Source of the DNA: a virus
Reading direction: 5' to 3' (one strand)
Virus record (IMG/VR): IMGVR_UViG_3300006921_000010
Coordinates: 7,768 to 71,767 of that record
Length of the DNA stretch: 64,000 nt
The number at the start of each line of letters is the position of its first letter. The stretch's first letter is position 1. Below, one piece after another: positions 23,491 through 64,000 of the stretch. A program made the position numbers and the translations under genes. The notes below the pieces were generated by a model that worked only from the letters and a program-made list of their open reading frames with translations, was not told where the DNA came from and searched no databases.

Positions 23491-25299
23491 TGTAAAACCC
23501 CCTTTACAGGATGGTACATACTACCTTGATTATAGAACATATTCGGCATTCTCATTTTCTCACCATTTTTTTGGGGCATATTTTTTAGACCTTTTTTATC
23601 CTATTTTTGGGGTGTTATTTTTCTGGCACTTGCGTTTATTTTTTTGCTCTTTTTTGTCCATTCCCAGAATAAGAATTAATTCATTACCTGTAGTGAGGGT
23701 TTATTTGAGCATTGGTGGTTAATGTGTATTCTTTTATTGATTCATTTGTATCCTTGATGCACCGCGAATTAATTATTAATAGCGATTCATACATTGATGC
23801 TCAACAGCCTTCTATTAGACCCACATGAGTAACACTATATTAATTTAGGGTTTCTAAAGACAAAATCTTATGTCAATTAAAATAAAAAAAAATCGAAAGA
23901 CAAAGCATATGGTGGGAGAAACGTAAAGCGTTAACCACTGATGATGGTCTTACTCTCCCTCGGAATAACGTATAGTTGCGTTAAGCAATAGTAGAGAGGA
24001 GGGGAGACCAGAAGAAGGAGGTTAAAGCAGTGTGAATGAATCACACCTTAAGGGTCGGGTTTAATCACATAAAATATCAGTAGTTGGGTGTGATATCTAC
24101 CAAGCATTCTCCGTGCGTAGTTTCAATAGACGTTTCACTGATGCTTAATGCATCACCTTTCACCACTGCACACGAATGCTGGAGATACACTCCCATCTAT
24201 CTGCATCTTTTATGCAACCATATGGGTGTAGCGTAGCGTTAAGCAGCCTTAAGGATATGAAACGCTTCGCTGTTACATCATCCTGCTATTTCTAGTTAAA
24301 AGCATTGAAACGCTTCACTTTTACTGAATGTTTCATCACAACACTTTTACCACTACGTTACTAAAAATATTGAAGGATGTAATTTAATACCATATGATTG
24401 TGCATTAAGCACACTGTTGTAAGGGAGGTCGGTAATGAAGCAACGTGAAACGGCCTGAGTGGACGTTGACCGAACAAAAGGTGAGTCCCAATCTATTAGA
24501 TTGAACTCGCTACGCTCAAACAAATACAATCATATGGTATCATAAACGTAGTTTAGATTATCCCCAATGCGGTCACAATTCTTAGCGACACACCAACCAC
24601 TCCCGTTGTTTATTGCTAAACGCATATCTACTAAGAATGCGAACCATATGGTAGTGTTAAGTTATATCTGAGTTTACTCTGTTTAGGCAATGGAGGAACG
24701 AGGTGAACTGGTAAGTATTATCACGCAAACATACATAAAACGAATAGTGCATTAAGCACAGTTGTATGTGGCGGCTTAAGTAATACTTACCGTGCAACCA
24801 TGTTCCGCAATTTGCCTAAACGGAGTAAAGTCAGGGGAACTATTATCAATACCACAAATGTGGTTATTATTGACTCTATATAGGAAGAAGACGATATCAT
24901 CATGCTTAATGCATGGTTCTAGTGAGTGCGAGGCGCACTCCAAGAACATCTGATATTCAACCGTCTTCTCCTATATCTCCCCGAATATAACCATATGGTA
25001 GTGTTAAAGTGTAGGTTACTTTACCTAAGTCTTCGGAAACTTTCAAGGCTAGGAGAATATTTAACAGCATACATACGCGCTGAACCTAAACTGGTTCAGG
25101 TAAGTAATGTATTGGCATTAAGCCAATGTTTATTTGGACTAGCCTTACAGTTGGAAGAGACATTAGAGTTACAGTATACTAAACAATAACATCTACCCCA
25201 TGTCGTCTCCTCCCCAGGTGTCTCCCCTTCTGGTTGTTAGCATAGTATCCATAGAACGGCTTAATGCCTTATAGTTCTATTACCTAGATACTATTACAA

Positions 25300-25360
25300 C
25301 CATATGGTGTTATACTTTGTGGTATAACACCTTAAATACTAATCAATATCTATTATAATG
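25300..25360 (+). promoter_or_regulatory. Cassette promoter A (archaeal TATA-type)
   Basis: CCATATGG-N6-ACTTTGT-N9-CCTTAAATACTAA-N-ATTATAATG; TATA-like TTAAATA at 25332-25338, ~26 nt before the inferred start; layout conserved in four copies. Confidence 0.7.
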
Positions 25361-25767
25361 TCGAGGAAACGTAACTCGACATGAGTGTGCCAGAATAAGT
25401 CCGTTATCTAGGGCTAATGGAATGCCATGTTCTGTGGTGGAACAACGAGGCCGATAATAATAAGTCGGTCAGTGAAAGGAAGGTAACTCTTCTATGGTAA
25501 GTTTTCTGGGGTGAATGCTACATGCGAATATAGATACCCATTCAGAATTGGTGGACGGTAGAAATATCAACCCACTCACTCCCCTGTTTTTCTAGTTTCA
25601 AGGATTGAGCCAAACGATAGTTTAATGGACTCATAAAATAAAAAACTAGACCACATAAACGAGTGGGAAATAGAAGTGGAAATCCCGTAAGTTATTCCAG
25701 TGCATCCAACCGAAAGGCTAGCCATTAGTGCGTTAGTAGGTTGCAGGTGTTATAAACAACGCTCGAC
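25359..25767 (+). ncRNA. Putative ~410 nt structured non-coding RNA
   Basis: Follows promoter A; no ORF of 60 aa or more; several nested complementary segments and a CCGAAAGG GNRA hairpin. Confidence 0.45.
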
Positions 25768-26604
25768 CTTGTGGGTTTATTAACAAAGTATACACCCATA
25801 TGGGTGTAGCCCTTAAGGAGACTTTTTCGTTATTATTTCATGGCTTCACGCTTTTTCACATTAATTGTAATCAAGTGCTAAATGCACTATACCATGTTAA
25901 AAAACCTTCACCATTTCAAAAATCACAAAAAACCATTTCATTGTTCCATATGGTAGGAGTCTAGTCTCAGGCATTATGCCTAGAACCGTGGTGGGAAGAC
26001 TTAGGCCGACCCCAAACGTATTGGGGACTATCTATACTACGTTATGACACCATATGGTAGTGTAAAGAAAGGAACAGGATAAATATATTTATGCGGGTAT
26101 GGTGTGTGCGATTACGGTGCTTTTCTAGTATTATGAATAATACAGTATAGGGCATTTAGCCCTTGTATTCATAATGCGTATAGGGAAAGCACGTATACGC
26201 TACACAAATGTCCCGCATAAATATTATTTATTCTAGTGATTCTTATCATCTACCCGTCTTGAGGGCGGGAGACTTCAGGTTATCTGGTGTTAGACTTGGC
26301 TTAACGCCACTTCTTAGTTTCTATGAACTAATAAGAATAGTTCTTCCTAACACCATATGGATGGGGGGCATTAGTCATACAAAGGACATTAAGTCTGCTA
26401 CGAAGTAGATTTGACAATGCTCTCTCTCCACATAAAGTTTAAGACCTGGGGCAAACTATGTATTTGTATCGTTAGATAAACTACTGCCGTTGGCCGTGTT
26501 TATCACGAACTGCAACCATATGGTGGGAGTGGTAATACTTTGTTAAAAGAACGTGAACCTGAAAAAAGGGACAAAAAGAAGGGTGAAGGTGGCCTATCAC
26601 CTAA

Positions 26605-27144
26605 TCACTCTTCTTCTTGTCCCCCATTATCTACTACATTAGGATAACCTTCTAGTGTGAAAGTCCCATCCCAGAAATAACGCTTTGATACGTCATTCTT
26701 AGCATACGCATTGTAGCATTGACTCAAAAATAAGGACATAACCTTAGTTTGATTGTCAGCGTATTCTGTGCGGCCATCATCCATATCTCTATAGAGGACA
26801 CCGCCGGATTTACCGTGTGTTTTAGCAAAACCGCGTTCTTGATTGTATGCTACGTCATATTGATACTGCCAATAATCTGCTTTGTATGTATCAAAATCCG
26901 ATTTAATAGCGGTTGTCATCAATGACCTTCTACCGCCGCCAATAGGGGAATTGCTCAAATCAGCAAATATCCCACTAATGCTAGACCAATGCTTCTTACG
27001 AAGGTCGCTTTGCATGTCACCTATCGCAAATAGTCCATCAGCAATGACTCGTCTACCCTCATGTTGAGGGTTCGCATCGAACCATTCTGCAATCAATTCT
27101 TTCTTCGCATTCCATGTGTTATCTTCCATACTGTAATCTACCAT
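26605..27144 (-). CDS. Cassette-encoded orphan protein, paralogue of 29338..29847
   Basis: 179 aa; own promoter, GGAGG SD; shares N-terminal ME..W and HGKS.G, YA, WDGT and terminal QEEE motifs with the paralogue. Confidence 0.8.
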   Translation of the reverse strand: MVDYSMEDNTWNAKKELIAEWFDANPQHEGRRVIADGLFAIGDMQSDLRKKHWSSISGIFADLSNSPIGGGRRSLMTTAIKSDFDTYKADYWQYQYDVAYNQERGFAKTHGKSGGVLYRDMDDGRTEYADNQTKVMSLFLSQCYNAYAKNDVSKRYFWDGTFTLEGYPNVVDNGGQEEE

Positions 27145-27191
27145 AATTTATTCCTCCAAGTTATATAAATAACTAGGTGTTAGGCCACCTT

Positions 27192-27252
27192 CATTACAGT
27201 CATTTTAACTTACTATTTAAGGTGTTCATCCACAAAGTATCACACCATATGG
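27192..27252 (-). promoter_or_regulatory. Cassette promoter B
   Basis: Minus strand CCATATGGTGTGATACTTTGTGGATGAACACCTTAAATAGTAA...TAATG, nearly identical to promoter A. Confidence 0.7.
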
Positions 27253-28472
27253 AACAACGAAGTGGTAATTGGTAATTGCTTGTAGCGAAGAGTAATTATA
27301 TATTAGTAAGGACATTAAGTCCTAGCAATACGTTGAATATATAATTGTGATTGAGCGAAAGAATTAGCCATTCGTGCCTTAAGGGTTACACCCATATGGT
27401 AGTGTAAAACGATAGACGTTATGGGTTGTAAGGAGACTTGTCATCGTCTAGTCGTAGAGTAACGATGAGAAGCATCCGTCAAGACATGTTGTCGGCTTAG
27501 TTGGTACAATATCCGATATCTTGGGATTGTAAACTGTCCTCAAGATGTGGCTTAATGCCACTTACATACGTTTATCAACCATATGGTTGGTCATAATTGA
27601 AATACAGTTTGATGTGAACATTTAGGTATCAATAAGGTAGCGCAGTAATAGTGCTACATTACTTATACCGTGAACATTGTAAACTGTGTAATGTATAGAC
27701 CATGCCCCATTTTTGAATGGGGTCAAGCCCTAAACCACGTTATTTACGCTTAATGCGTATTTTCTCTTGTCCATATGGTTGTTAATAGACTGGTCTATAA
27801 CTTACCCCATTGTGGAAACCGCTAACGTTGTCCTTGCCTAGCAAGTGTTCTTAATGACACATTACAACAACGCTACTTCCATATGGGTGTGCATTAAGCA
27901 CAGGGTAAAACATAAACCCCCAAATGAGGATTATACATGGCGTTCCGAGAGGAAACCTCCTCCACTAACAATGTATAACCATATGGTTGCATTAAGCAAG
28001 GAACGTAGTATAGAGGTCTAGGGCGGCTCTGACCGATTAATACTACGAGACATTTCCCGATTGCCAAAAATGGGATTGACTTCCGCTAACCGCTTAACTA
28101 AACTACGCAAATGTTTCCATTTTCGTAGATTATGTAAAATCAACCATATGGTAGTGTAAAGATGGAACTGAAGAAAAATATATTTTTCTGAGAGTGCAAA
28201 GAGTGGGGTTTTGCAGATTCAGATGATATTAATTTAGCATTTAGTGGCATTAAGCCACTGCGTAATATTATCGGTTAAAACTCTGTAAAGCCCCCTTTTG
28301 CACCTTGTAAAAATATATTTTGTCTTTGAGTGTATTCTTATCATCTACCCGTCCTAACATCCGCCCCTCTGGTGCTAGACTTGGCCTAATGCCAACTGAC
28401 TAGATTATAATCTACACAGTATCGTTTTATCTAACACCATATGGTTCTAAACTTTGTCTATAGAACCTGAAG

Positions 28473-28688
28473 TTAATCTTCAGATTCCCCCGTTATAGAC
28501 ATATATTCGTCTAAAGCCTGTCTTAATTCGGACATAACCATAGAAAGGTCATCACCAGATACCTTCAATTCCTCAATAGAGAGGACAATGTTCTGTCCTG
28601 ATTTCATATGCTTTAATTTGATAGCATATTTAGGGGCATTTACTTGTTGTATAATAGTAGTAGTTTCGTTATTCATTAAAATCACCAA
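28473..28688 (-). CDS. Cassette-encoded small protein
   Basis: 71 aa (likely start MNNETT after GGTGA SD); downstream of promoter C and a structured leader. Confidence 0.6.
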   Translation of the reverse strand: MVILMNNETTTIIQQVNAPKYAIKLKHMKSGQNIVLSIEELKVSGDDLSMVMSELRQALDEYMSITGESED

Positions 28689-28798
28689 AGGGTGAGACAG
28701 CCCTTAACCAAGTGGCTATACTTCCAATAAATACGTTTAGATTGTCTCATGGCATCATCACGTTGTTGGATAGCGGTCAAGCATTGGTGGGCTGTCTA

Positions 28799-28860
28799 CA
28801 TTATAATAGATATTAGTTAGTATTTAAGGTAGTCCTTAACAAAGTTGTCCTACCATATGG
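28799..28860 (-). promoter_or_regulatory. Cassette promoter C
   Basis: Minus strand CCATATGG-N7-ACTTTGT...CCTTAAATACTAACTAATATCTATTATAATG. Confidence 0.7.
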
Positions 28861-29231
28861 TTCATCGTAGATTGGACAGAACCAGATTTTAGGGCTTACA
28901 CTTGGTATTGTAATCATTGCATCTGCGCTTCGTTGGCTGAATACGCCTGATAAAGAAATATCAGAAGAGTATATGTATTCATCCTTTGAAGACTTGATGG
29001 AATGAAACAATCCCTTCGCTACAACCATATGGAGGGTCATGAAGTGATAAAAGGTAATGTATGAACATAACAGTATGAATAAGGTAGCGCAATAATAGTG
29101 CTACCTTAGTAATACCGTGAAATACATTATTTGTTCATGATAGATTTCTCCACACAAATGAGGTATCCCCACTTACGTTTTGCAGAGGAGATGGCTTAAT
29201 GCCATATATCTCTAATTTCTCAGCAAGCCTA

Positions 29232-29289
29232 CCATATGGTTCGACTTTGTCAAGAACCCCTTATATACTAACTATGTTAGATTATAATG
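29232..29289 (+). promoter_or_regulatory. Cassette promoter D
   Basis: CCATATGG-N4-ACTTTGT...CCTTATATACTAAC...ATTATAATG. Confidence 0.7.
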
Positions 29290-29337
29290 TCGCTGACCTA
29301 ACTAAAGGGAAGAAAGGATTATTGGAAGGTAATTAAA

Positions 29338-29847
29338 ATGGAAGAAAGTAATTGGAATAATGTAAAGAATAAAGTAGCCTCATGCTTAGATGGGGATATT
29401 GATAGTGAAATACCTATTGATGTGAAAACATTAGTAAGCATGCTAATGGAGACAGGAGATAATAATGTCGCAAACCGAACCGCACTAGCGGCATCAGTAA
29501 AAGCGATGTTGAAAGATTTCCCATCAGGTCAAGTAGTCTGGAGAAGAGGTAATCAAGGACTATTGTCTATTGAGGCAAGTATGGTTGTTGAAACTGCTTG
29601 TGCAGAAATTAGAGAAGCGGCTCATCTGTTTTTCACCACTACTCAGACTTATTCACAACCCCTGTTACGAAAGCATGGTAAATCTAAAGGCGCACCTGTG
29701 TTTTTAGATGCCGATGACTACGCAAATACTCTAGTGGCTAAAGCCAAGCAAACTGCTAGAGAATTATTCAAATCCAAAGAATGGGATGGTACTACTGACG
29801 GCTTAGATGCATGTGCATCTTATACCGAAGTTCAGGAGGAGGAATAA
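29338..29847 (+). CDS. Cassette-encoded orphan protein, paralogue of 26605..27144
   Basis: 169 aa; GGAAGGT SD; shared motifs as above. Confidence 0.8.
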   Translation: MEESNWNNVKNKVASCLDGDIDSEIPIDVKTLVSMLMETGDNNVANRTALAASVKAMLKDFPSGQVVWRRGNQGLLSIEASMVVETACAEIREAAHLFFTTTQTYSQPLLRKHGKSKGAPVFLDADDYANTLVAKAKQTARELFKSKEWDGTTDGLDACASYTEVQEEE

Positions 29848-30475
29848 TCGCCTTCTGAACTTTAGTTTTGGTCGGCGACAACGGTAGGCAAGGATAGGTT
29901 GAAATATACCTATTCTTGTCTCCAAAACTTCTGGTTCTATGGACAAAGTTTAGAACCATATGGTCACACTAAAGATGTGCCTCAATTTGTGGATACGCAG
30001 ATATTCTTATTCTTTGTCGTTCATAACATATCATCTCCTGAATATCTGCTACCATATGGTAGTCCATAATGAATGGAATGAAAAGGTTTAGGACTTACCC
30101 GAGGGGTTTTTTAGGGTATGCACAAGGACGATTCTCTTGTGCTTAATGCACACTCTCTGCCACCATATGGTTGTAGAGTAATAAAAAAAGAATAGCGTGT
30201 TGTAGAGCGAGGGCATCGAGGTGGTGCCGCGCAGTATATATACTAACTCGATTTGATTGTAATGTCGGCGGCAATTAAAATCTAATGGCCTGTTAAACAC
30301 GCATTCCGCCAATGGCCTATTTATACCTATTACATTTAATGGCTTAATTTATTATACAGTGAATAAGCATAGTTTAGGATTAATGAACCGAGAAGGCTAT
30401 CTATGTATAATATATCTCTTATCTTATACACATATCAATATGGCATATCCTATATGATATGATAGTTTATCGAAT

Positions 30476-30755
30476 ACGTTTCTAATTTCTAATTTGGATT
30501 GGAAATGAGTTTGCTCAAAATGAGTGGGTTAGGGTATAGTAAGTATGTTAAAATTATATATTTATAATATTATAATATTTCTAACTAATATATATAACAA
30601 CTACCTACCTACCTACCTACCTACCTACCCTGATGGGGGGTTAGAAACGTTAGAAATTAGAAATGACAGTCAAAACAAGTTAAATTGTATCAGTTATCAT
30701 AGAGTATCTGGTGCAAAATGTGTTTCCAATGGGATTAGAATAAGGTTAGAAATGC
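30476..30755. other. Candidate replication origin: AT-rich core, inverted TTAGAAA repeats, (CTAC)7 tract and G-string
   Basis: TTTCTAA at 30479, 30486 and 30578; TTAGAAA at 30641, 30650, 30657 and 30746; nearly pure AT at 30548-30600; CTAC x7 at 30601-30628; G6 at 30635-30640. Confidence 0.45.
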
Positions 30756-51990: not shown

Positions 51991-52760
51991 ATAGTATTCA
52001 AGTGAATACTAAATCATTTATAGAAGCAATAGAGGCAATTTGGCTTAAAGGTAAATATAAGTCCTCTACTACTTCTAAGACTGATGTTATCAGTAATACC
52101 TGTGTAGCAATTGTTAGAAGTGAAGAGTTAGAGTTATTGAACGGTAATGATAAAACAGCATTGAGTGTTATAATACCAATTGAAGAACAAATCTCAGTAG
52201 TAGAAGAGATGCTTATATTTGATATAGAGAAACTAATGAAATACGTTAAGAATATGAAATGTGTAAATCTTACATTAAGATTTAATCAATCTACGTTAGA
52301 AGTTAAAGGATTAGTTAAAACAGTTAAATTACCAAGACTGTTAGAGCATACTAATATGAATCTAATTACTATGATTATGTCATTTGACTATGAGCATGGT
52401 GGTAAGGCTATATTCGGCAAGACAGAATTACCTTGTCAATTATCATTTAATGGTAATGAATTGAAAGAAGCAGTTAAGTTTTGTTCTGTATCTGGCACAG
52501 CAACATATACTATTGTGCATTGGGGTGGGAATAATGAGTTTAAACTTATGTCATCAAGCAGTAGTGGCACAGATACTAGTGAAGTAAACGTATCATTACT
52601 ATCAGAAAATGATTATGATGCAACAGTTTCATTTTCTGCACCATTAGATAAGTTTTGTATAGATAGTGAGATGACAATATTAACAGGTGATAACTTACCT
52701 GTTATGTTAATTGGGGAAAGTAGAAAGATGGTGGTAGCACCATACGTTAGAAGTGATTGA
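51951..52760 (+). CDS. pcna: DNA sliding clamp (PCNA-like)
   Basis: Size, two-domain beta/alpha pattern ending LPVMLI...VVAP; located between ATPase and PolB. Confidence 0.65.
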   Translation: MERNNRTTRGNSLNSIQVNTKSFIEAIEAIWLKGKYKSSTTSKTDVISNTCVAIVRSEELELLNGNDKTALSVIIPIEEQISVVEEMLIFDIEKLMKYVKNMKCVNLTLRFNQSTLEVKGLVKTVKLPRLLEHTNMNLITMIMSFDYEHGGKAIFGKTELPCQLSFNGNELKEAVKFCSVSGTATYTIVHWGGNNEFKLMSSSSSGTDTSEVNVSLLSENDYDATVSFSAPLDKFCIDSEMTILTGDNLPVMLIGESRKMVVAPYVRSD

Positions 52761-54426
52761 AATGATAATAAGCACTGTAGATAAGAATAATATGATTGGC
52801 CTTAGATGGCGAGATGAAAATAATAAAAGAGTAGTGGAGGAGGTTTCTTACGAAGAAGCCCCTCCCTATTTCTTTGTAGAGCAAAGTGCTAATAGAATAA
52901 AAAGAATGTCTGTTAAAGAATACGGACAAAGTTTCACTATCAATGTTAGTTATGAAGAAGGTGATTATGTTTCTTTAGAGAAGAAGAAACTAACTAAAGT
53001 TACGTGGACTCCTCCTAAACCGTGGTATGGTAAAACATTAAAGAATCAATTTAATAAAACGTATGAAGCAGATGTAGCATACTCATACAGATATGCTGTT
53101 GATAACATACATGATATGCCAGAGTATGACCTTAGAAAAATCTATTGGGATATGGAGTGGCAACAAGGTGGTGAACATGATAATGCAGTTACTTGTATTT
53201 CCTACTATGATAGTTATACAGGTGTATCTAATGTATTATGGTGGACACCATTAGGTGCTGTTCGTGATATTATAGACCATTGTAAGCCAAATGAAAGTGA
53301 GCATGATATGTTAGAATGTTTTCTTACGGTTATAGAAAGTCATGACCCAGATATGCTAGTTGCATGGTTTGGTTCTAAGTTCGATTTACCTAAGTTAATT
53401 GAAAGACTACATGCTAATGGTATAGACCCTAGACGTTTATCTCCTTATCATGATGTTAAAGGTGTATTCTTTGAACCAAGTAAAGGGATTAAACTCACAA
53501 AGGCAGTAAATAACTACTCACCAATAGAACAACCTATTCGTGGAAGACTTGTTCTAAACCTAGACTTAGCATTTGAAAGGCAATGGAATGATTCACAAAG
53601 AGGAACATTACCTTCTATGGCTTTGGATTATGTATCTGAATTGGTATTAGGGACTAAGAAACTTGTTAGTGAAAAGTTTCCTGATAAGAATGATTTCTTT
53701 CAAAGAGGATGGCTTGAAGATACTCAAAGATATTTAGATTATGCTAGGGTTGATGTAGACCTTCTGGTTCAAATTGATGACAATATGAACACATCAGAAT
53801 CTGTAATAGCATTACAGCGATTGCTAAAAGCACCCTTTGAAGCATGTTTCTATGCAAGCAATATGGGTGGGATATACTTCATGCGTAATGCATGGTGGAA
53901 AGCCCCTACGGGTGAGAAAGGTGAACGTATAAATTATGAAGGTGCCATGATTTATGACCCTTTAACTGAAGGCACAAATGGACTACATTTAGGTGTAGCC
54001 GCATTTGATTTTGCACAACTGTATCCATCAATGATGATAGCAAGAAATATTTCTTGGGAAACTAAATCAAATGAACCAACGGAGTTTGCAGTTAATATAT
54101 TAACTCCAAGAGATTTCAGTGATGTTACAAAAGAAGATATGCGTTATTTCAAAACAGATAAACTTGGTTTATTACCAAAAGCAGTTTTGGAACTTAAAGA
54201 ACTAAGAGATGAATATAAAGCAAAGATGCGACAAGCAGAAACTAAAGACGAACAAATTAAATGGAACAGTAATCAATTGGCAGTTAAACGACTGATGGCT
54301 TCATTCTATGGTATTACCGCATATCAAGGCTTTGGTTGGGCTGACGTAGATATAGCGGCTTCAATAACTGCTAGTGCTAGAGAAGCAATTAGATGTGCAG
54401 CATTAAAAGTGGAGGGATTAGAATGA
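52753..54426 (+). CDS. polB: Family B DNA polymerase, N-terminal part (3'-5' exonuclease, motifs A and B)
   Basis: WDME, FDLPKL, YARVD, FDFAQLYPS, KRLMASFYG. Confidence 0.92.
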   Translation: MIEMIISTVDKNNMIGLRWRDENNKRVVEEVSYEEAPPYFFVEQSANRIKRMSVKEYGQSFTINVSYEEGDYVSLEKKKLTKVTWTPPKPWYGKTLKNQFNKTYEADVAYSYRYAVDNIHDMPEYDLRKIYWDMEWQQGGEHDNAVTCISYYDSYTGVSNVLWWTPLGAVRDIIDHCKPNESEHDMLECFLTVIESHDPDMLVAWFGSKFDLPKLIERLHANGIDPRRLSPYHDVKGVFFEPSKGIKLTKAVNNYSPIEQPIRGRLVLNLDLAFERQWNDSQRGTLPSMALDYVSELVLGTKKLVSEKFPDKNDFFQRGWLEDTQRYLDYARVDVDLLVQIDDNMNTSESVIALQRLLKAPFEACFYASNMGGIYFMRNAWWKAPTGEKGERINYEGAMIYDPLTEGTNGLHLGVAAFDFAQLYPSMMIARNISWETKSNEPTEFAVNILTPRDFSDVTKEDMRYFKTDKLGLLPKAVLELKELRDEYKAKMRQAETKDEQIKWNSNQLAVKRLMASFYGITAYQGFGWADVDIAASITASAREAIRCAALKVEGLE

Positions 54427-54499: not shown

Positions 54500-55414
54500 G
54501 TGGAGAAAATGAGAGTAGTTTATGGACATACAGATTCAATATACGTTCAGATGCCTATGGAACGGGCAGAAGAAACATTAGCATTACTAAATAATCATGT
54601 TAGAAGTCATTTCCCAAACCTGTTGGGTCTAAAGGAACACCCTGTAACTTTAGAGTTTGAGAAATACTACAAGACTTTAGGAGTAGGTATTACTAAGAAC
54701 AGAAATGCAGGTCTAATAACATGGAAAGATGGTAAAACATTAGAAGAACCGGAGTTTGTTATGACAGGTTTTTCTGCTAAAAGAGTAGCAGTAACTACAT
54801 TAGCAAAGACAATTCAATTAGAAGTGCTTAATCGTTGGGTCAATGAAGAGAGTGAAGAGAGTATTACTTCATATCTTAAGACTCAATACAATAGAGTATT
54901 AAACGGTCAAATTGAAATTGATGAGATAACAAACAGAAGTAGATATAGACCCGAAAGATTCGTCTATAAGTGTAATGATTGTAATAAAGAATACACCGTA
55001 GATGATGCAATTAAAAGACACAAGGAGTTTACTACTTCTTTTTGTGGTAAGTGCGGCACCGAGTTAGACTTAAAAACTCTTGAAGGTAAACAACCAAGTA
55101 TAGGTAGTGGAGTAGAAGGAGTAATTTGGTGGAACCAAACATATCCTACACCTATTAGTGAATCGTATTTTTATGTTAGAGTCCAAGATGACCCGTTAAG
55201 GCTTAAATATATTAATCCAATAACAGGAATGCACAAAAGACCAACCTACTTAGCGGCACCAAGTAAAGAACAGATGCCGAATCATATCCCAGATTATAGA
55301 CACTATTCAGATTCTATAATCAAAAAAGCAGAACCGATTTACAATGCTATGGGATGGGATTTAAAACCAATTAAAAACGATGTGAATCAAACAAACCTAG
55401 AAGAATGGTGGTAA
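54500..55414 (+). CDS. polB: Family B DNA polymerase, C-terminal part (motif C, thumb; likely start 54509)
   Basis: YGHTDS, LEFEK, KNRNAG; CNDC...CGKCG insertion; C-terminal QTNLEEWW PIP box. Confidence 0.9.
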   Translation: MEKMRVVYGHTDSIYVQMPMERAEETLALLNNHVRSHFPNLLGLKEHPVTLEFEKYYKTLGVGITKNRNAGLITWKDGKTLEEPEFVMTGFSAKRVAVTTLAKTIQLEVLNRWVNEESEESITSYLKTQYNRVLNGQIEIDEITNRSRYRPERFVYKCNDCNKEYTVDDAIKRHKEFTTSFCGKCGTELDLKTLEGKQPSIGSGVEGVIWWNQTYPTPISESYFYVRVQDDPLRLKYINPITGMHKRPTYLAAPSKEQMPNHIPDYRHYSDSIIKKAEPIYNAMGWDLKPIKNDVNQTNLEEWW

Positions 55415-60130: not shown

Positions 60131-60739
60131 ATGAGTAAAGTAGTAGCGATTGATATTGAAACAAAAAACTTCGCCAATGATATAGGCGGTTGGGCTAATA
60201 CACATATGTTTCAGCCATCTGTTGTTTGCACTTGGGATGGTAGCGTAGGGACTGTGTATGTAGAACAGGACTTAATGAAATCATTAGATGGTTTACAAAA
60301 GAGTGGTACTGTCATTAAGACATTAAGACAACTTAAGTTTGATTTAGATGACTTACATAAAGAAGGTGGTATATTGTTAGGACATAACATAGCCGCATTT
60401 GACTTACCTGTATTACGAGATTCAATGGATATATATTGTATCAACAAGTATTTCAATACTAAACAGTATTTTGATACAAGTAGGATGATAAGTTCTATAA
60501 CGAAACAAAGGTATAGTCTAAATAATTTAGTGCAACATACTTTAGGTTCTGAAAAGATTATGGATAGTGCAGACGCACCTGTTGTATGGAAAGCAGGTGG
60601 CTATGAAGAAGTAGCAAAGTATTGTATAAAAGATTGTCAATTAGTCTATGATTTATGGAAACATGGTAAAGATAATGGTTTCATTAAAGGATATTCTATT
60701 GATGAAGTAGAAGAAAAAACAATGGAGGTGGAGTGGTAA
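60131..60739 (+). CDS. DEDD/RNase H-like 3'-5' exonuclease
   Basis: DIET, GHNIAAFD, YCIKD. Confidence 0.8.
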   Translation: MSKVVAIDIETKNFANDIGGWANTHMFQPSVVCTWDGSVGTVYVEQDLMKSLDGLQKSGTVIKTLRQLKFDLDDLHKEGGILLGHNIAAFDLPVLRDSMDIYCINKYFNTKQYFDTSRMISSITKQRYSLNNLVQHTLGSEKIMDSADAPVVWKAGGYEEVAKYCIKDCQLVYDLWKHGKDNGFIKGYSIDEVEEKTMEVEW

Positions 60740-61950: not shown

Positions 61951-64000
61951 TCAGAAGTTATATCTCACCCATAACATAGCCTGTGAATTATTAAGGTCAG
62001 TTGAACCACTTTGTCTCTTTACTTGTAAAACATCACCTGCTGCAAATGTAAACAATACATCACTACCCGATTTAACAAGAGAATATTGATTTCCATTAGT
62101 ATTATTCAAATCGCTTTCTGTAAAAGTAAAGTCTTTAATATCGCTACCACTAGTGCCACCATTCTTTCTTATTCGTAATGTATTAGTATTTCCACTAGTG
62201 CTTATAGCCGAACCCGCAAAGAGGAAAGATGCTGCCATTACTTTACCTGCAAATGGCATTGGATAACCGTTAGGATTAGCAGTAGAACTTTGAACTGTTG
62301 GAACTCTAAAATCAACAGCATTTGTATCTAATCCTGCCCTTTCATAGAATAGTGGTGTTAATGCACCTAATACAATTCCATCTTCATTACCTTGAATCCA
62401 TGTAGTTCCGCCATCACCATCTGATATTGATAATTGACTATCTGCGGTTGCACTTGGAACATCAGCCCCACCAATTACTACGTTAAAATCTCCTGAAGAA
62501 ATACTATCACCGGCTTGATAACCAATTCCAATATTTTTAGTACCTTCTCTAACATTATCTAATGCCTCATAACCAAATCCAGTATTACCTGTTCCTGAAC
62601 TTACTAAATATCCTGCTTTATAACCTGTAAAAGTATTGTTAGCACCAGTGATAGCACCAACACCACCATACATTGATTGTGTTCCTATTGCTGTATTACC
62701 TGAACCACTACCTGCACCCATAGTTGAGCGTAATGCTTGATAACCTACTGCAACAGAATAAGCACCTGTTTGATTATAAGCAGTTACAGAACCAACATAA
62801 GTTGAATAACTTCCACCTTTGTAACCTGCTTGATAACCAACTGCTGTTGTGTAATCATGAACAGTAGGAGTATGACCCCACCAAAACCCTGCTTCAGCAC
62901 CTACTGCGGTTGTAAAATCCATATCACCACCAAACCATGCAGTATTTCTTCCAACTCCTACATTGTAATTACCAGTAATACTCTTACCTGCTTGCATACC
63001 TACACCTGTATTATGTGTGCCTGTTGCACCATTACCAGATTGATAACCAACATAAGTGCATTCTATTTGAGTCGTTATAGCATTGGCTGATTGATAACCT
63101 ATTGCAGTTAAGTTACTAGCACTTGTTACTGCTGTTCCCGCTTGATGTCCTACTGCGACTATATTGCTTAATGTTGTTATAGCATCTAAAGTCTGTGTTC
63201 CAATTGCTACGTTTCTGCTACCTGTTGTAATTTGACTTAGTGAGTTATACCCTACTGTTGTGTTGTGAGTCCCTGTTGTAATAGTTTGACTGCTTCCTGA
63301 ACCTACTGCTGTATTATAAGAAGCACCAGTAGTATTCTGCCAATGACCCGATAACGCATTATTTCCAATCCCAACATTGTCTTGTGAACTTTTAGCACCT
63401 CTCATCCCTGCGTTACTACCAATCATGGTATTATTACTTGAAGCGGTTGCGTATCTCCCTGCGTGATTACCGACCATAGTGTTATTGCTAGTATCGGTTG
63501 CCGCTTCACCTGCGGCATACCCTATCATAGTATTATAATCACCTGTATTTATTGCTGTTCCAGAATCTATTCCAAGCGCAGTATTATAATTACCACCTGA
63601 TGCTAAAGAATCTAAAGCACCACTACCTAATCCTATGTTGTCAGTAGCAGTTGTAATTGCATCTGATAATTCACCAATAGCAGAAGCACCGCCACCCCCT
63701 GCTTCTTCTAAACTAATTTGAGTATTAGCATGGTCGTAAGTTAATACATAATTATCTTGACCTGAACCTACTGTTTGGTCAACATCAAATTGGAAGTTAC
63801 CTAAGTTTACTTGACCTGTTCCATTTGGTGTAATACTAATATCACTATTAGCACCATCAGTAATAGTAATCGAACCTGAATTAGTTCCATCATTTGTTCT
63901 GAGAATTAAATCTTGAGTTCCCTTAGCATTGACATAACCTGCTGAGTTTCCATCTCCAACAGTTATTCCATATGGGTCAACTGTTAATTTTAATTGACCC
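61951..64000 (-). CDS. Tail fibre/adhesin with G/N/T-rich beta-helical repeats (5'-truncated by window)
   Basis: ~14-residue NTAVGxxA repeats; the frame appears to stay open upstream of the track start at 63528. Confidence 0.8.
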   Translation of the reverse strand, partial: GQLKLTVDPYGITVGDGNSAGYVNAKGTQDLILRTNDGTNSGSITITDGANSDISITPNGTGQVNLGNFQFDVDQTVGSGQDNYVLTYDHANTQISLEEAGGGGASAIGELSDAITTATDNIGLGSGALDSLASGGNYNTALGIDSGTAINTGDYNTMIGYAAGEAATDTSNNTMVGNHAGRYATASSNNTMIGSNAGMRGAKSSQDNVGIGNNALSGHWQNTTGASYNTAVGSGSSQTITTGTHNTTVGYNSLSQITTGSRNVAIGTQTLDAITTLSNIVAVGHQAGTAVTSASNLTAIGYQSANAITTQIECTYVGYQSGNGATGTHNTGVGMQAGKSITGNYNVGVGRNTAWFGGDMDFTTAVGAEAGFWWGHTPTVHDYTTAVGYQAGYKGGSYSTYVGSVTAYNQTGAYSVAVGYQALRSTMGAGSGSGNTAIGTQSMYGGVGAITGANNTFTGYKAGYLVSSGTGNTGFGYEALDNVREGTKNIGIGYQAGDSISSGDFNVVIGGADVPSATADSQLSISDGDGGTTWIQGNEDGIVLGALTPLFYERAGLDTNAVDFRVPTVQSSTANPNGYPMPFAGKVMAASFLFAGSAISTSGNTNTLRIRKNGGTSGSDIKDFTFTESDLNNTNGNQYSLVKSGSDVLFTFAAGDVLQVKRQSGSTDLNNSQAMLWVRYNF

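Follow-up and report, generated by a model that had tools for sequence, protein, structure and literature searches.

The window, a stretch of 64,000 nucleotides, belongs to a magrovirus-like virus of marine archaea with a PolB/RFC/ligase set of replisome genes. Between positions 23906 and 30170 (about 23.9 to 30.2 kb) it carries approximately 22 non-coding modules, and the palindrome CCATATGG forms the joint between them. The palindrome occurs 24 times in the window compared to 0.90 expected, and 23 of the 24 copies are in the array; the other, at 63968, is within a tail-spike-like ORF. Gene orientation and GC skew both switch at the position of the array. In near-identical viruses, the modules differ in order and orientation (scrambled and flipped) despite a right flank that is 99% identical over 500 nt. 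A hairpin with a 5-nt loop is confined to the non-coding modules of the array.

Hairpins in the window (23 rows) were listed when a C-G closing pair and a complementary second pair enclosed a loop with no more than one change from ATTAA, and a stem of at least 3 bp was required unless the loop was exact. Features of the array are as follows.

23906..30170, no strand: array of modules jointed by CCATATGG, 23 exact copies from 24218 to 30170 plus a degenerate first joint
Near 23906: degenerate first joint of the array, GCATATGG
23976..23988, plus: hairpin, loop variant GTTAA, 4-bp stem
24139..24155, minus: hairpin, ATTAA, 6-bp stem
24399..24413, plus: hairpin, ATTAA, 5-bp stem; degenerate joint CCATATGA just before
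24747..24759, plus: hairpin, ATTAA, 4-bp stem; caps a helix of about 75 pairs
24901..24915, minus: hairpin, ATTAA, 5-bp stem
25111..25127, plus: hairpin, ATTAA, 6-bp stem; best covariance-model match (27.5 bits)
25258..25268, minus: hairpin, ATTAA, 3-bp stem
25300..25803, plus: manA-like structured RNA expression cassette (context), without an ATTAA hairpin and fenced by CTTTG-loop hairpins
25874..25888, minus: hairpin, variant ATTTA, 5-bp stem
25969..25981, plus: hairpin, variant ATTAT, 4-bp stem; missing from the list in an earlier note
26149..26163, plus: hairpin, variant ATTTA, 5-bp stem; caps a helix of about 71 pairs
26297..26309, minus: hairpin, variant GTTAA, 4-bp stem
26385..26395, plus: hairpin AC-ATTAA-GT, 3-bp stem
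27309..27323, plus: hairpin AC-ATTAA-GT, 5-bp stem
27547..27561, minus: hairpin, ATTAA, 5-bp stem
27745..27759, minus: hairpin, ATTAA, 5-bp stem
27849..27857, minus: imperfect copy TC-ATTAA-GA, 2-bp stem (13.6 bits)
27888..27902, plus: hairpin, ATTAA, 5-bp stem; joint 4 nt before
27987..27999, plus: hairpin, ATTAA, 4-bp stem; joint 2 nt before
28243..28259, plus: hairpin, ATTAA, 6-bp stem; caps a helix of about 69 pairs
28381..28395, minus: hairpin, variant ATTAG, 5-bp stem
29191..29205, minus: hairpin, ATTAA, 5-bp stem
30138..30152, minus: hairpin, ATTAA, 5-bp stem; last joint 13 nt after

The earlier note on this DNA had described about 20 copies of the hairpin, and our list recovered 20 of the 21 positions it gave. 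Among the 20 listed copies, 13 are exact GCATTAAGC or GCTTAATGC, two are ACATTAAGT, and five have a one-letter loop variant (GTTAA at 23978, ATTTA at 26152, TAAAT at 25877, TTAAC at 26299, and CTAAT at 28384). The copy at 24236 is weak, with a stem of only 2 bp. Additional copies are present at 25971 (GC-ATTAT-GC) and, imperfectly, at 27849. Comparison with shuffled sequence and a covariance model, both suggested in that note, upheld the enrichment. In the array, 14 ATTAA loops are carried by perfect stems of at least 4 bp; 200 dinucleotide-preserving shuffles of 23901-30200 averaged 0.17 (sd 0.38) and never exceeded 1. Outside the array, only 2 of the 422 ATTAA sites have a stem of this length. 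The 71,767-base record contains 13 exact 9-mers, every one of them within the array, and no instance of a backwards control pattern. With filters off, the covariance model gave 22 matches at E<=0.51; 21 are in 23970-30157, including five absent from the training set, and one is outside at 60304. No match to the hairpins was found when 4227 Rfam covariance models were compared against 23500-30700 at E<=1, and the only matches there were a manA-like RNA (25359-25582) and a chance miRNA match. Predicted stability is -5.0 to -10.1 kcal/mol for every copy folded as RNA and -3.6 to -6.2 kcal/mol as ssDNA, which we describe as equally stable.

The element has a 5-nt loop closed by an invariant C-G pair, and its 5-bp Watson-Crick stem is free in sequence. 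Covariation was evaluated on 53 distinct 25-mers, obtained from 56 CATTAAG sites in four related arrays. Pairs 2 to 5 are complementary in 53, 49, 45, and 39 of the 53, and pair 6 in 18 of 53, no more than expected by chance. Covariation scored 0.534 versus 0.200 +/- 0.022 after shuffling (none of 500 shuffles reached it), and sliding the 3' partner gave 0.07-0.26. The previously noted flanks that vary between copies and stay complementary are therefore genuine covariation. One example is the AC-ATTAA-GT hairpin at 27309..27323, which is GC-ATTAA-GC in the matching module of a relative (L074 5827), a compensatory change. Wobble is almost absent from pairs 3-5 of the 5-bp stem, where 2 of 162 cells are G.T versus 21 other mismatches. 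Within +/-45 nt, conservation above 0.5 bit is limited to the 9-mer and the two positions next to it, which makes the hairpin a self-contained unit, and the same conservation profile contains no promoter or T-run adjoining the hairpin.

Of 68 hairpins, 11 cap long helices of at least 15 pairs and 57 are short. Three modules of the window form imperfect hairpins of about 70 pairs, each ending in the conserved loop. Scored symmetrically, the 11 long helices have 24 G.T versus 6 A.C on the ATTAA-reading strand, a difference that rests on few related families (approximately 15 versus 4 with one helix per family). At position 7, 15 of 54 copies have T.G and 3 have A.C. In a 300-nt module family, predicted folding energy is -44.7 kcal/mol on the ATTAA strand versus -38.2 on the other, with 19 compensated pairs among four sequences. 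The G.T asymmetry points to folding of a single strand rather than a cruciform, and it is equally compatible with RNA and ssDNA, between which it cannot tell. A cruciform tip with both strands folded, one of the earlier suggestions, fits this asymmetry poorly. The related idea of a dsDNA operator or cruciform, both strands of which are read by a dimeric protein, agrees with the near-palindromic site and with its mirrored arrangement in pairs on either side of a palindromic joint. However, a protein reading half-sites in duplex DNA would conserve their sequence, and these stems vary freely yet stay complementary; in addition, the loop is asymmetric and the wobble in long helices is strand-biased. 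Arms of 5 bp are too short for cruciform extrusion. We consider an operator or cruciform very improbable.

ATTAA and TTAAT represent a single motif seen from opposite directions. Of the window copies, 20 are flanked by junctions on either side, and when each is read inward from the junction closer to it, the loop is ATTAA in all 20. Across four arrays, exact C-ATTAA-G hairpins with stems of at least 4 bp are inward in 41 cases versus outward in 2, and under a looser hairpin definition 67 of 76 are inward. The tendency of the two forms to take opposite sides of CCATATGG, reported earlier, corresponds to this inward orientation, but their treatment as two partner forms is not supported, since they are one motif inverted and the loop variants are uncompensated. 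Kissing loops, in which ATTAA and TTAAT hairpins of one transcript would pair by their loops, whether they share a module or lie on either side of a joint, and thereby fold the RNA, were proposed on the basis of mutual complementarity. The two loop forms are exactly complementary in all three clades that carry the element, and two-hairpin modules have one of each; however, complementarity is the automatic outcome of inverted orientation. None of seven members of the two-hairpin module family has fully complementary loops (ATTAA is found with TTAAC, ATTAA with CTAAT, and ATTTA with TTAAC, none compensated), and many modules have a single hairpin. Loop-loop helices between 5-nt loops composed entirely of A and U are weak and strained. 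T.G at position 7 is on the ATTAA-reading strand in both genomic orientations, so the strand that folds is not the one reading TTAAT. We regard pairing between these loops as highly doubtful.

Hairpins of the attC, IS200/IS605, or HUH-nick kind could in principle move or flip modules. Scrambled and flipped modules in near-identical viruses, and hairpins near module ends in inverted orientation, agree with such a role. However, homology breakpoints in four arrays pile up at the joint, with 82 of 182 HSP ends near CCATATGG versus 18.7 expected, and they avoid the hairpins (4 HSP ends versus 13.9 expected). The distance from joint to hairpin is also variable, from 2 to 176 nt. No HUH/Rep, transposase, recombinase, or integrase domain was found by Pfam in the 82 window ORFs of at least 70 aa, a scan that covered the record from about 7.7 kb onward. 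The HUH-type nick site suggested previously has no support from either the breakpoints or the domain scan. Integron attC sites were rejected on the lack of a recombinase domain in the 82 ORFs and on breakpoints that avoid hairpins. At the two ends of an HUH or IS200/IS605 element, the hairpins share a strand. These elements were rejected because the motif here changes strand from one end to the other (20 of 20 window copies; 41 versus 2 in four arrays). A recombination role for the hairpins is largely refuted, and we give it very little weight.

REP/BIME/REPIN elements and attC sites resemble the array in having many imperfect palindromes, which occur in inverted pairs and are recognized in folded single-stranded form. 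Their conserved part is the stem sequence or extrahelical bases, whereas in the array hairpin it is the loop. In addition, no RAYT or IntI gene was found in the window (Pfam, 82 ORFs), and breakpoints avoid the hairpins. PeSL cassettes of T4-type phages are also similar, with small repeated stem-loops in a hyperplastic region and units shuffled between close relatives (PMC2839356). As described there, a PeSL consists of a sigma-70 promoter and a terminator hairpin, and recombination occurs between PeSLs (PMC2839356). The array hairpins differ in having no adjoining promoter or T-run, in conserving the loop, and in the location of breakpoints at CCATATGG.

Related clades have the same element with other loops: GAATA in the second clade (inward in 13 of 13) and GCTWA in the third (inward in 17 of 17). 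The loop is fixed within a virus clade, being (A/G)TTAA here, and each of these loops ranks first among 5-nt-loop hairpins within its own loci. All inward-read loops are purine-N-N-N-A (R-N-N-N-A) closed by C-G. No enriched pentaloop hairpin was found in 11 of 21 related arrays, and the element is therefore dispensable for the array as such. The earlier interpretation is right in part. Its general idea, a stem-loop selected for its structure with a loop recognized by sequence, holds and is backed by covarying stems, fixed geometry, and loops that differ by clade; its kissing, cruciform, and HUH specifics are not supported.

The manA-like RNA (RF01745) at 25359-25582 scored 54.3 bits versus a gathering score of 55.2. 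RNA contigs cover 25375-25769 of this cassette in four of four runs, and the array is the source of at least one abundant structured RNA. Contigs from the four runs cover only three expression cassettes, although missing cover is not evidence of absence, and those of the three expressed cassettes end short of the joints in all four runs. By our reading, one of four window cassettes has an inward hairpin in the next module.

Folding could also occur on DNA. In that case, the hairpin would be a signal on the strand exposed by a replication fork or by nick-primed displacement from joint into module. The lagging-strand template or displaced strand is the one running inward 5'->3' on both sides, and the hairpin would act in priming or loading, like single-strand origins (sso) of rolling-circle plasmids. 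This directly accounts for the mirror symmetry (same loop on opposite strands at the two ends). Near-pure Watson-Crick 5-bp stems, the strand-specific G.T excess in long helices, predicted stability as ssDNA, and location of the array at the switch in gene orientation and GC skew also fit. As described in PMC8860593, sso elements are hairpins with a conserved 6-nt loop sequence. The three window modules of about 70 pairs match that anatomy, a long imperfect one-strand hairpin whose terminal loop carries a short conserved sequence. On the other hand, the replisome is of the PolB/RFC/ligase type, and the Pfam scan of 82 ORFs revealed no rolling-circle Rep. Most copies are short (57 of 68), unlike sso elements, and there are many copies per genome; 20 per 6 kb would mean many priming sites. 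Absence of an enriched pentaloop hairpin from 11 of 21 arrays is also odd for a replication signal. We consider an ssDNA signal rather unlikely, though more probable than the other rivals.

Among the closest known systems is boxB in the nut sites of lambdoid phages. GNRA-like pentaloops have a looped-out base, and pentaloop or hexaloop variants of boxB bind their cognate phage N peptides specifically; the P22 boxB loop is the pentaloop GACAA (PMC12550061). Array hairpins share the features of a GNRA-like pentaloop (short stem, purine first, A last), and, as in boxB, the loop differs by lineage. Cognate N antiterminator peptides are known for boxB loops, whereas no N-like protein was identified in the archaeal virus. 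The array also differs in having about 20 copies in non-coding modules rather than one per early operon, in the mirror orientation of copies around joints, and in its commonest loop, which begins with A instead of G.

We tentatively favor, at somewhat less than even confidence, a boxB-like, loop-specific docking hairpin that reads inward from the junction and acts on RNA or, less likely, on ssDNA. In its favor are the geometry and covariation of the stems, the inward orientation, the clade-specific loops, the signs of single-strand folding, the predicted stability of each copy as RNA, and the abundant structured RNA in the array. Mirror arrangement of the hairpins requires RNA running inward from both module ends, whereas the contigs of the three expressed cassettes end short of the joints and only one of four window cassettes has an inward hairpin in the next module; this counts against docking on RNA. 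Some hairpins are 2-14 nt from a joint, leaving no space for their own promoter, and a selected RNA helix would not usually be so nearly free of wobble pairs; both likewise count against docking. No candidate for a partner protein emerged among the 179-, 169-, and 71-aa array proteins, which are in clades with and without hairpins. The 179-aa protein had no fold match (best Foldseek E-value 0.99; best VIA Z-score 6.4, to generic helices).

Under the docking interpretation, the functional form would be a hairpin folded from one strand, the strand whose 5'->3' direction leads from the nearest joint into the module. Its loop would probably be the docking site for a co-evolving protein, likely encoded by the virus. 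The hairpin would most likely form in the transcripts of polymerases that pass through a joint and enter a module, and it may serve in processing, control of termination, or insulation as a tag of the nut/boxB type. If this is correct, the tag would work in either orientation of a flipped module.

Marine Group II archaea are host to abundant, uncultured magrovirus-like viruses, and to our knowledge almost nothing has been established about the regulation of these viruses. The source record in IMG/VR has 71,767 bases and is rated 75% complete; the window (its bases 7768-71767) has a GC content of about 33%. Structural and replication genes lie on either side of a modular array, and the features to which the argument refers are as follows.

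Features of the window (window coordinates, strand, description)
Up to about 23.5 kb, minus strand: structural genes, including portal, large terminase and HNH protein
From about 30.5 kb, plus strand: replication genes
25359-25582, plus strand, in cassette 25300-25803: manA-like RNA (RF01745), 54.3 bits against a gathering score of 55.2
26605-27144, minus strand: 179-aa array protein, conserved in nearly all related arrays
26080-26092 and 26218-26232: AT-only near-palindromes of AAAAATATATTTTT type
28171-28190 and 28309-28321: AT-only near-palindromes of AAAAATATATTTTT type

The replication set includes a class II ribonucleotide reductase, an ATP-dependent ligase, RFC, a family-B DNA polymerase split in two adjoining ORFs (52753-54426 and 54500-55414, plus strand), a PD-(D/E)XK nuclease, and an ERCC4 nuclease with helix-hairpin-helix. 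The closest cultured relatives of the portal are haloarchaeal tailed viruses (31% identity) and a Methanomassiliicoccales virus, and the window sequence is present in marine metagenomes. From gene content, portal relatives and marine occurrence, we read this as probably a magrovirus-like marine archaeal virus, a name that follows gene content and not a direct match. Among phage GenBank records, neither the array nor 33-43 kb had a nucleotide match. Immediately right of the array, ahead of the first replication-side ORF, are a CTAC/CTACC microsatellite run (30595-30630) and repeated TTAGAAA-type words (30470-30670). The window has no tRNA genes; in relatives, tRNA genes adjoin the array (L075 1741-1824, L076 10342-10425, L082 12246-12329, and L087 692-2132 on the minus strand). 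L087 has four, one of which spans 174 nt and therefore probably has an intron.

The array is built on a palindromic joint, CCATATGG; the window contains 24 copies of it, where 0.9 would be expected. Twenty-three copies at 24218-30170 delimit 22 modules of 96-729 bp, and the 24th lies within a tail-spike-like gene. Four modules are expression cassettes, three with ORFs (179, 71, and 169 aa) and one with the manA-like structured RNA, and every cassette contains a promoter of TATA type, while at each of its ends a hairpin with a CTTTG loop is fused to the joint. The remaining modules have no convincing ORF. Two module classes can be told apart by their hairpins: expression cassettes are fenced by CTTTG loops, and non-coding modules have loops of purine-NNN-A type. 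This distinction constrains models of cassette shuffling. Four copies of CCTTAAGG were found in the window, all within the array (24250, 25810, and the 27370 region), and several sit in a shared module end of type GGGTGTAGCCCTTAAGG.

Similar arrays, with 3-23 joints apiece, occur in 20 related IMG/VR loci found through the 179-aa protein (26-97% identity). L074, the closest relative, shares 99% identity with the window over 500 nt of right flank, but its module order differs and several modules are flipped. Comparison of window 24218-30170 with L074 3077-8945 shows at least six flipped modules, with module identities of 68-97%. Such differences suggest that the two arrays have exchanged modules with a wider pool, rather than diverged by simple descent. 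Of 182 homology ends between four arrays, 82 fall at CCATATGG (18.7 expected). Restriction avoidance of CATATG was rejected, because its count outside the array (20 copies) is close to the expected 19.7. The CCATATGG-jointed arrays are comparable to the PeSL cassettes of T4-type phages (PMC2839356). No description of the array or its hairpins was found in the literature on magroviruses or on CCATATGG with phage; among the matches listed, phage papers appear to use CCATATGG in primers, and the magrovirus papers examined mention repeats, at most, in connection with terminal repeats and assembly, and describe no array of this kind.

Short stem-loops recur through the non-coding modules. The earlier note described a conserved ATTAA or TTAAT apex in about 20 copies, and the present criteria recover 20 of its 21 positions as hairpins; the stem at 24236 is just 2 bp long. 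Further copies lie at 25971 and 27849. Fourteen ATTAA loops have perfect stems of at least 4 bp, compared with 0.17 ± 0.38 in 200 shuffled sequences, none of which contained more than one. Outside the array, stems of at least 4 bp accompany only 2 of 422 ATTAA sites, and all 13 exact 9-mers in the entire record fall within it. When a covariance model was run with filters off, 21 of 22 matches at E ≤ 0.51 lay inside 23970-30157, and five matches in the array were absent from the training set. The hairpin matches no known RNA family among 4227 Rfam covariance models. In cellular genomes the combined joint and hairpin pattern was found at 120 or more loci in unrelated bacteria and archaea, which we read as chance matches because none among the matches listed has three or more CCATATGG copies.

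Covariation defines the limits of the element. All CATTAAG sites in four related arrays (56 sites, 53 distinct 25-mers) were compared with only the closing C-G pair imposed. Pairs 2 to 5 are kept in 53, 49, 45, and 39 of the 53 copies across a wide variety of stem sequences, and pair 6 is kept in 18, which is chance level; the element is therefore a 5-bp stem with a 5-nt loop. Flank covariation, which had been noted from the window alone, scored 0.534 against 0.200 ± 0.022 in shuffled sets, with 0 of 500 shuffles reaching the observed value, and slid controls gave 0.07-0.26. A compensatory change is seen at window 27309, where AC...GT corresponds to GC...GC in the matching L074 module. Within 45 nt on either side, no sequence outside the element is clearly conserved apart from T at -7 and G at +7 (T.G in 15 of 54 copies). 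The motif belongs to the general kind of loop-specific, structure-selected stem-loop signals. Homology breakpoints avoid the hairpins (4 versus 13.9 expected), and the hairpin was rejected as a recombination site.

Hairpin orientation is tied to the joints. ATTAA and TTAAT had been described as two forms that tend to lie on opposite sides of a joint; the association with joint side holds, and the TTAAT "form" is the same ATTAA hairpin near the other end of the module. Read from the nearer joint inward (5' to 3' into the module), ATTAA is found in 20 of 20 window copies with joints on both sides. Across the four arrays, 67 of 76 copies point inward under a loose definition, and exact loops with stems of at least 4 bp are inward in 41 cases versus outward in 2.

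Related arrays carry different loops on the same plan. A second clade (L086, L087, L089) has an enriched C-GAATA-G pentaloop hairpin with stems mostly of 6-8 bp, and a third (L080, L082, L084) has C-GCT(A/T)A-G; every copy in these clades obeys the inward rule (13 of 13 and 17 of 17, respectively). The same analysis found no enriched pentaloop hairpin in 11 other loci. Read inward, the three loops have the form purine-N-N-N-A closed by C-G, and their complements share no common pattern. Most hairpin copies of the third clade are followed, about 7-10 nt on, by a short box, A-(A/G)-(C/T)-GAA, which could belong to a larger motif. GNRA-like pentaloops, that of P22 boxB among them, are described as having one looped-out base, and different boxB loop variants as binding specifically to their cognate N peptides (PMC12550061). 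The pairing of boxB with N peptide is the closest formal parallel to the clade-specific loops.

Eleven hairpins out of 68 sit at the tip of longer helices (15-75 pairs), and these helices bear on which strand folds. With arms aligned under equal scoring for all mismatches, the 11 helices contain 24 G.T versus 6 A.C on the strand with the ATTAA tip (about 15 versus 4 with one helix per family). The 5-bp stem itself is nearly free of wobble (2 G.T in 162 cells). CTTTG hairpins at expression cassettes have no wobble bias (G.T 5 versus A.C 8 in 57 hairpins), and the asymmetry of the ATTAA-capped helices is therefore not a general array property. For a 300-nt module family (26050, 28144, and relatives), the fold on the ATTAA-tip strand reaches -44.7 kcal/mol with 19 compensated pairs, versus -38.2 on the opposite strand; across seven members 18 pairs are compensated. 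Searches with a 16-mer of this family gave 56 loci in viral contigs, two of them real and both from a known relative, and 11 in metagenomes, where three new relatives (L150, L151, L157) added three members. In this family the long hairpins have the near-palindromes of AAAAATATATTTTT type at their base, and a 5' box, GGTAGTGTAAAG, is able to pair with an internal box, CTTATCATCTACC; both boxes are invariant, so covariation provides no test of this pairing.

The wobble excess and better fold on the ATTAA strand argue for a single folded strand, against the cruciform proposed earlier and against a duplex operator. Kissing loops, also proposed, are disfavored because fully complementary loops occur in none of seven members of the two-hairpin family and loop variants are uncompensated. 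An HUH-type nick site fares no better, as no such enzyme was found among 82 window ORFs and the anatomy differs; an integron or REP element was rejected on the same two grounds. The earlier observation is confirmed and sharpened, and its interpretation is partly supported.

The folding strand would be the one running 5' to 3' from the joint into the module, on both sides. It would be exposed by a polymerase crossing the joint, either as nascent RNA or as the lagging or displaced DNA strand. We tentatively propose, at somewhat below an even chance, that the hairpin is a boxB-like RNA docking site for a co-evolving viral protein, mirror-placed so that flipped modules still work. The main rival, which we consider less likely, is a single-stranded DNA signal resembling the single-strand origins (sso) of rolling-circle plasmids (PMC8860593). 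The hairpins are predicted to be stable both as RNA and as single-stranded DNA, and the strand asymmetry has no power to separate the two. Several observations count against RNA. Some hairpins lie only 2-14 nt from the joint, cassette transcripts end short of joints, and no partner was found among the array proteins examined (179, 169, and 71 aa).

RNA contigs of four marine metatranscriptomes (X19-X22) were mapped to 23500-30700 at 90% or higher likeness. Cover is limited to 25375-25769, 26604-27184, and 29303-29898, with strand unreadable from contigs, and stops before the joints at every covered cassette. The lack of any hairpin-module transcript among these contigs also weighs against RNA, though absent cover is not evidence of absent RNA. 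The manA-like cassette has its own TATA-type promoter with no ORF downstream, and its 25375-25769 segment is covered in all four metatranscriptomes; k-mer depth is 166-611, versus 4-52 for the two larger ORF cassettes, and this contrast suggests that the unit is a real RNA. Sub-threshold manA matches also occur in L075, L076, L080, and L082.

The 179-aa protein has invariant blocks, including HGKSGG and NSPI..GR; its family lacks a Pfam domain and numbers at least 219 hypothetical proteins of marine origin. The AlphaFold model of the protein is confident (pLDDT 91.8) but had no informative structural match. The 179-, 169-, and 71-aa proteins are present in clades with and without hairpins. The 179-aa protein was dropped as a hairpin partner on the grounds of this distribution and its lack of a structural match.

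A broader reading, somewhat more doubtful than the docking-site proposal, is that the non-coding modules form a shufflable library of structured RNAs, or of single-stranded DNA signals, in which every module carries the same clade-specific, GNRA-like pentaloop as an "address tag". A co-evolving viral protein would read the tag, as an archaeal-virus counterpart of N/boxB, and mirror placement would let it work in either module orientation at CCATATGG. The fixed geometry, clade-switching loop, and strict orientation provide a concrete experimental handle, and the partner protein, once identified, would reveal the purpose of the non-coding half of the array. If the address-tag reading is true, archaeal viruses that rank among the most abundant in the ocean would have a new system of RNA-protein recognition.
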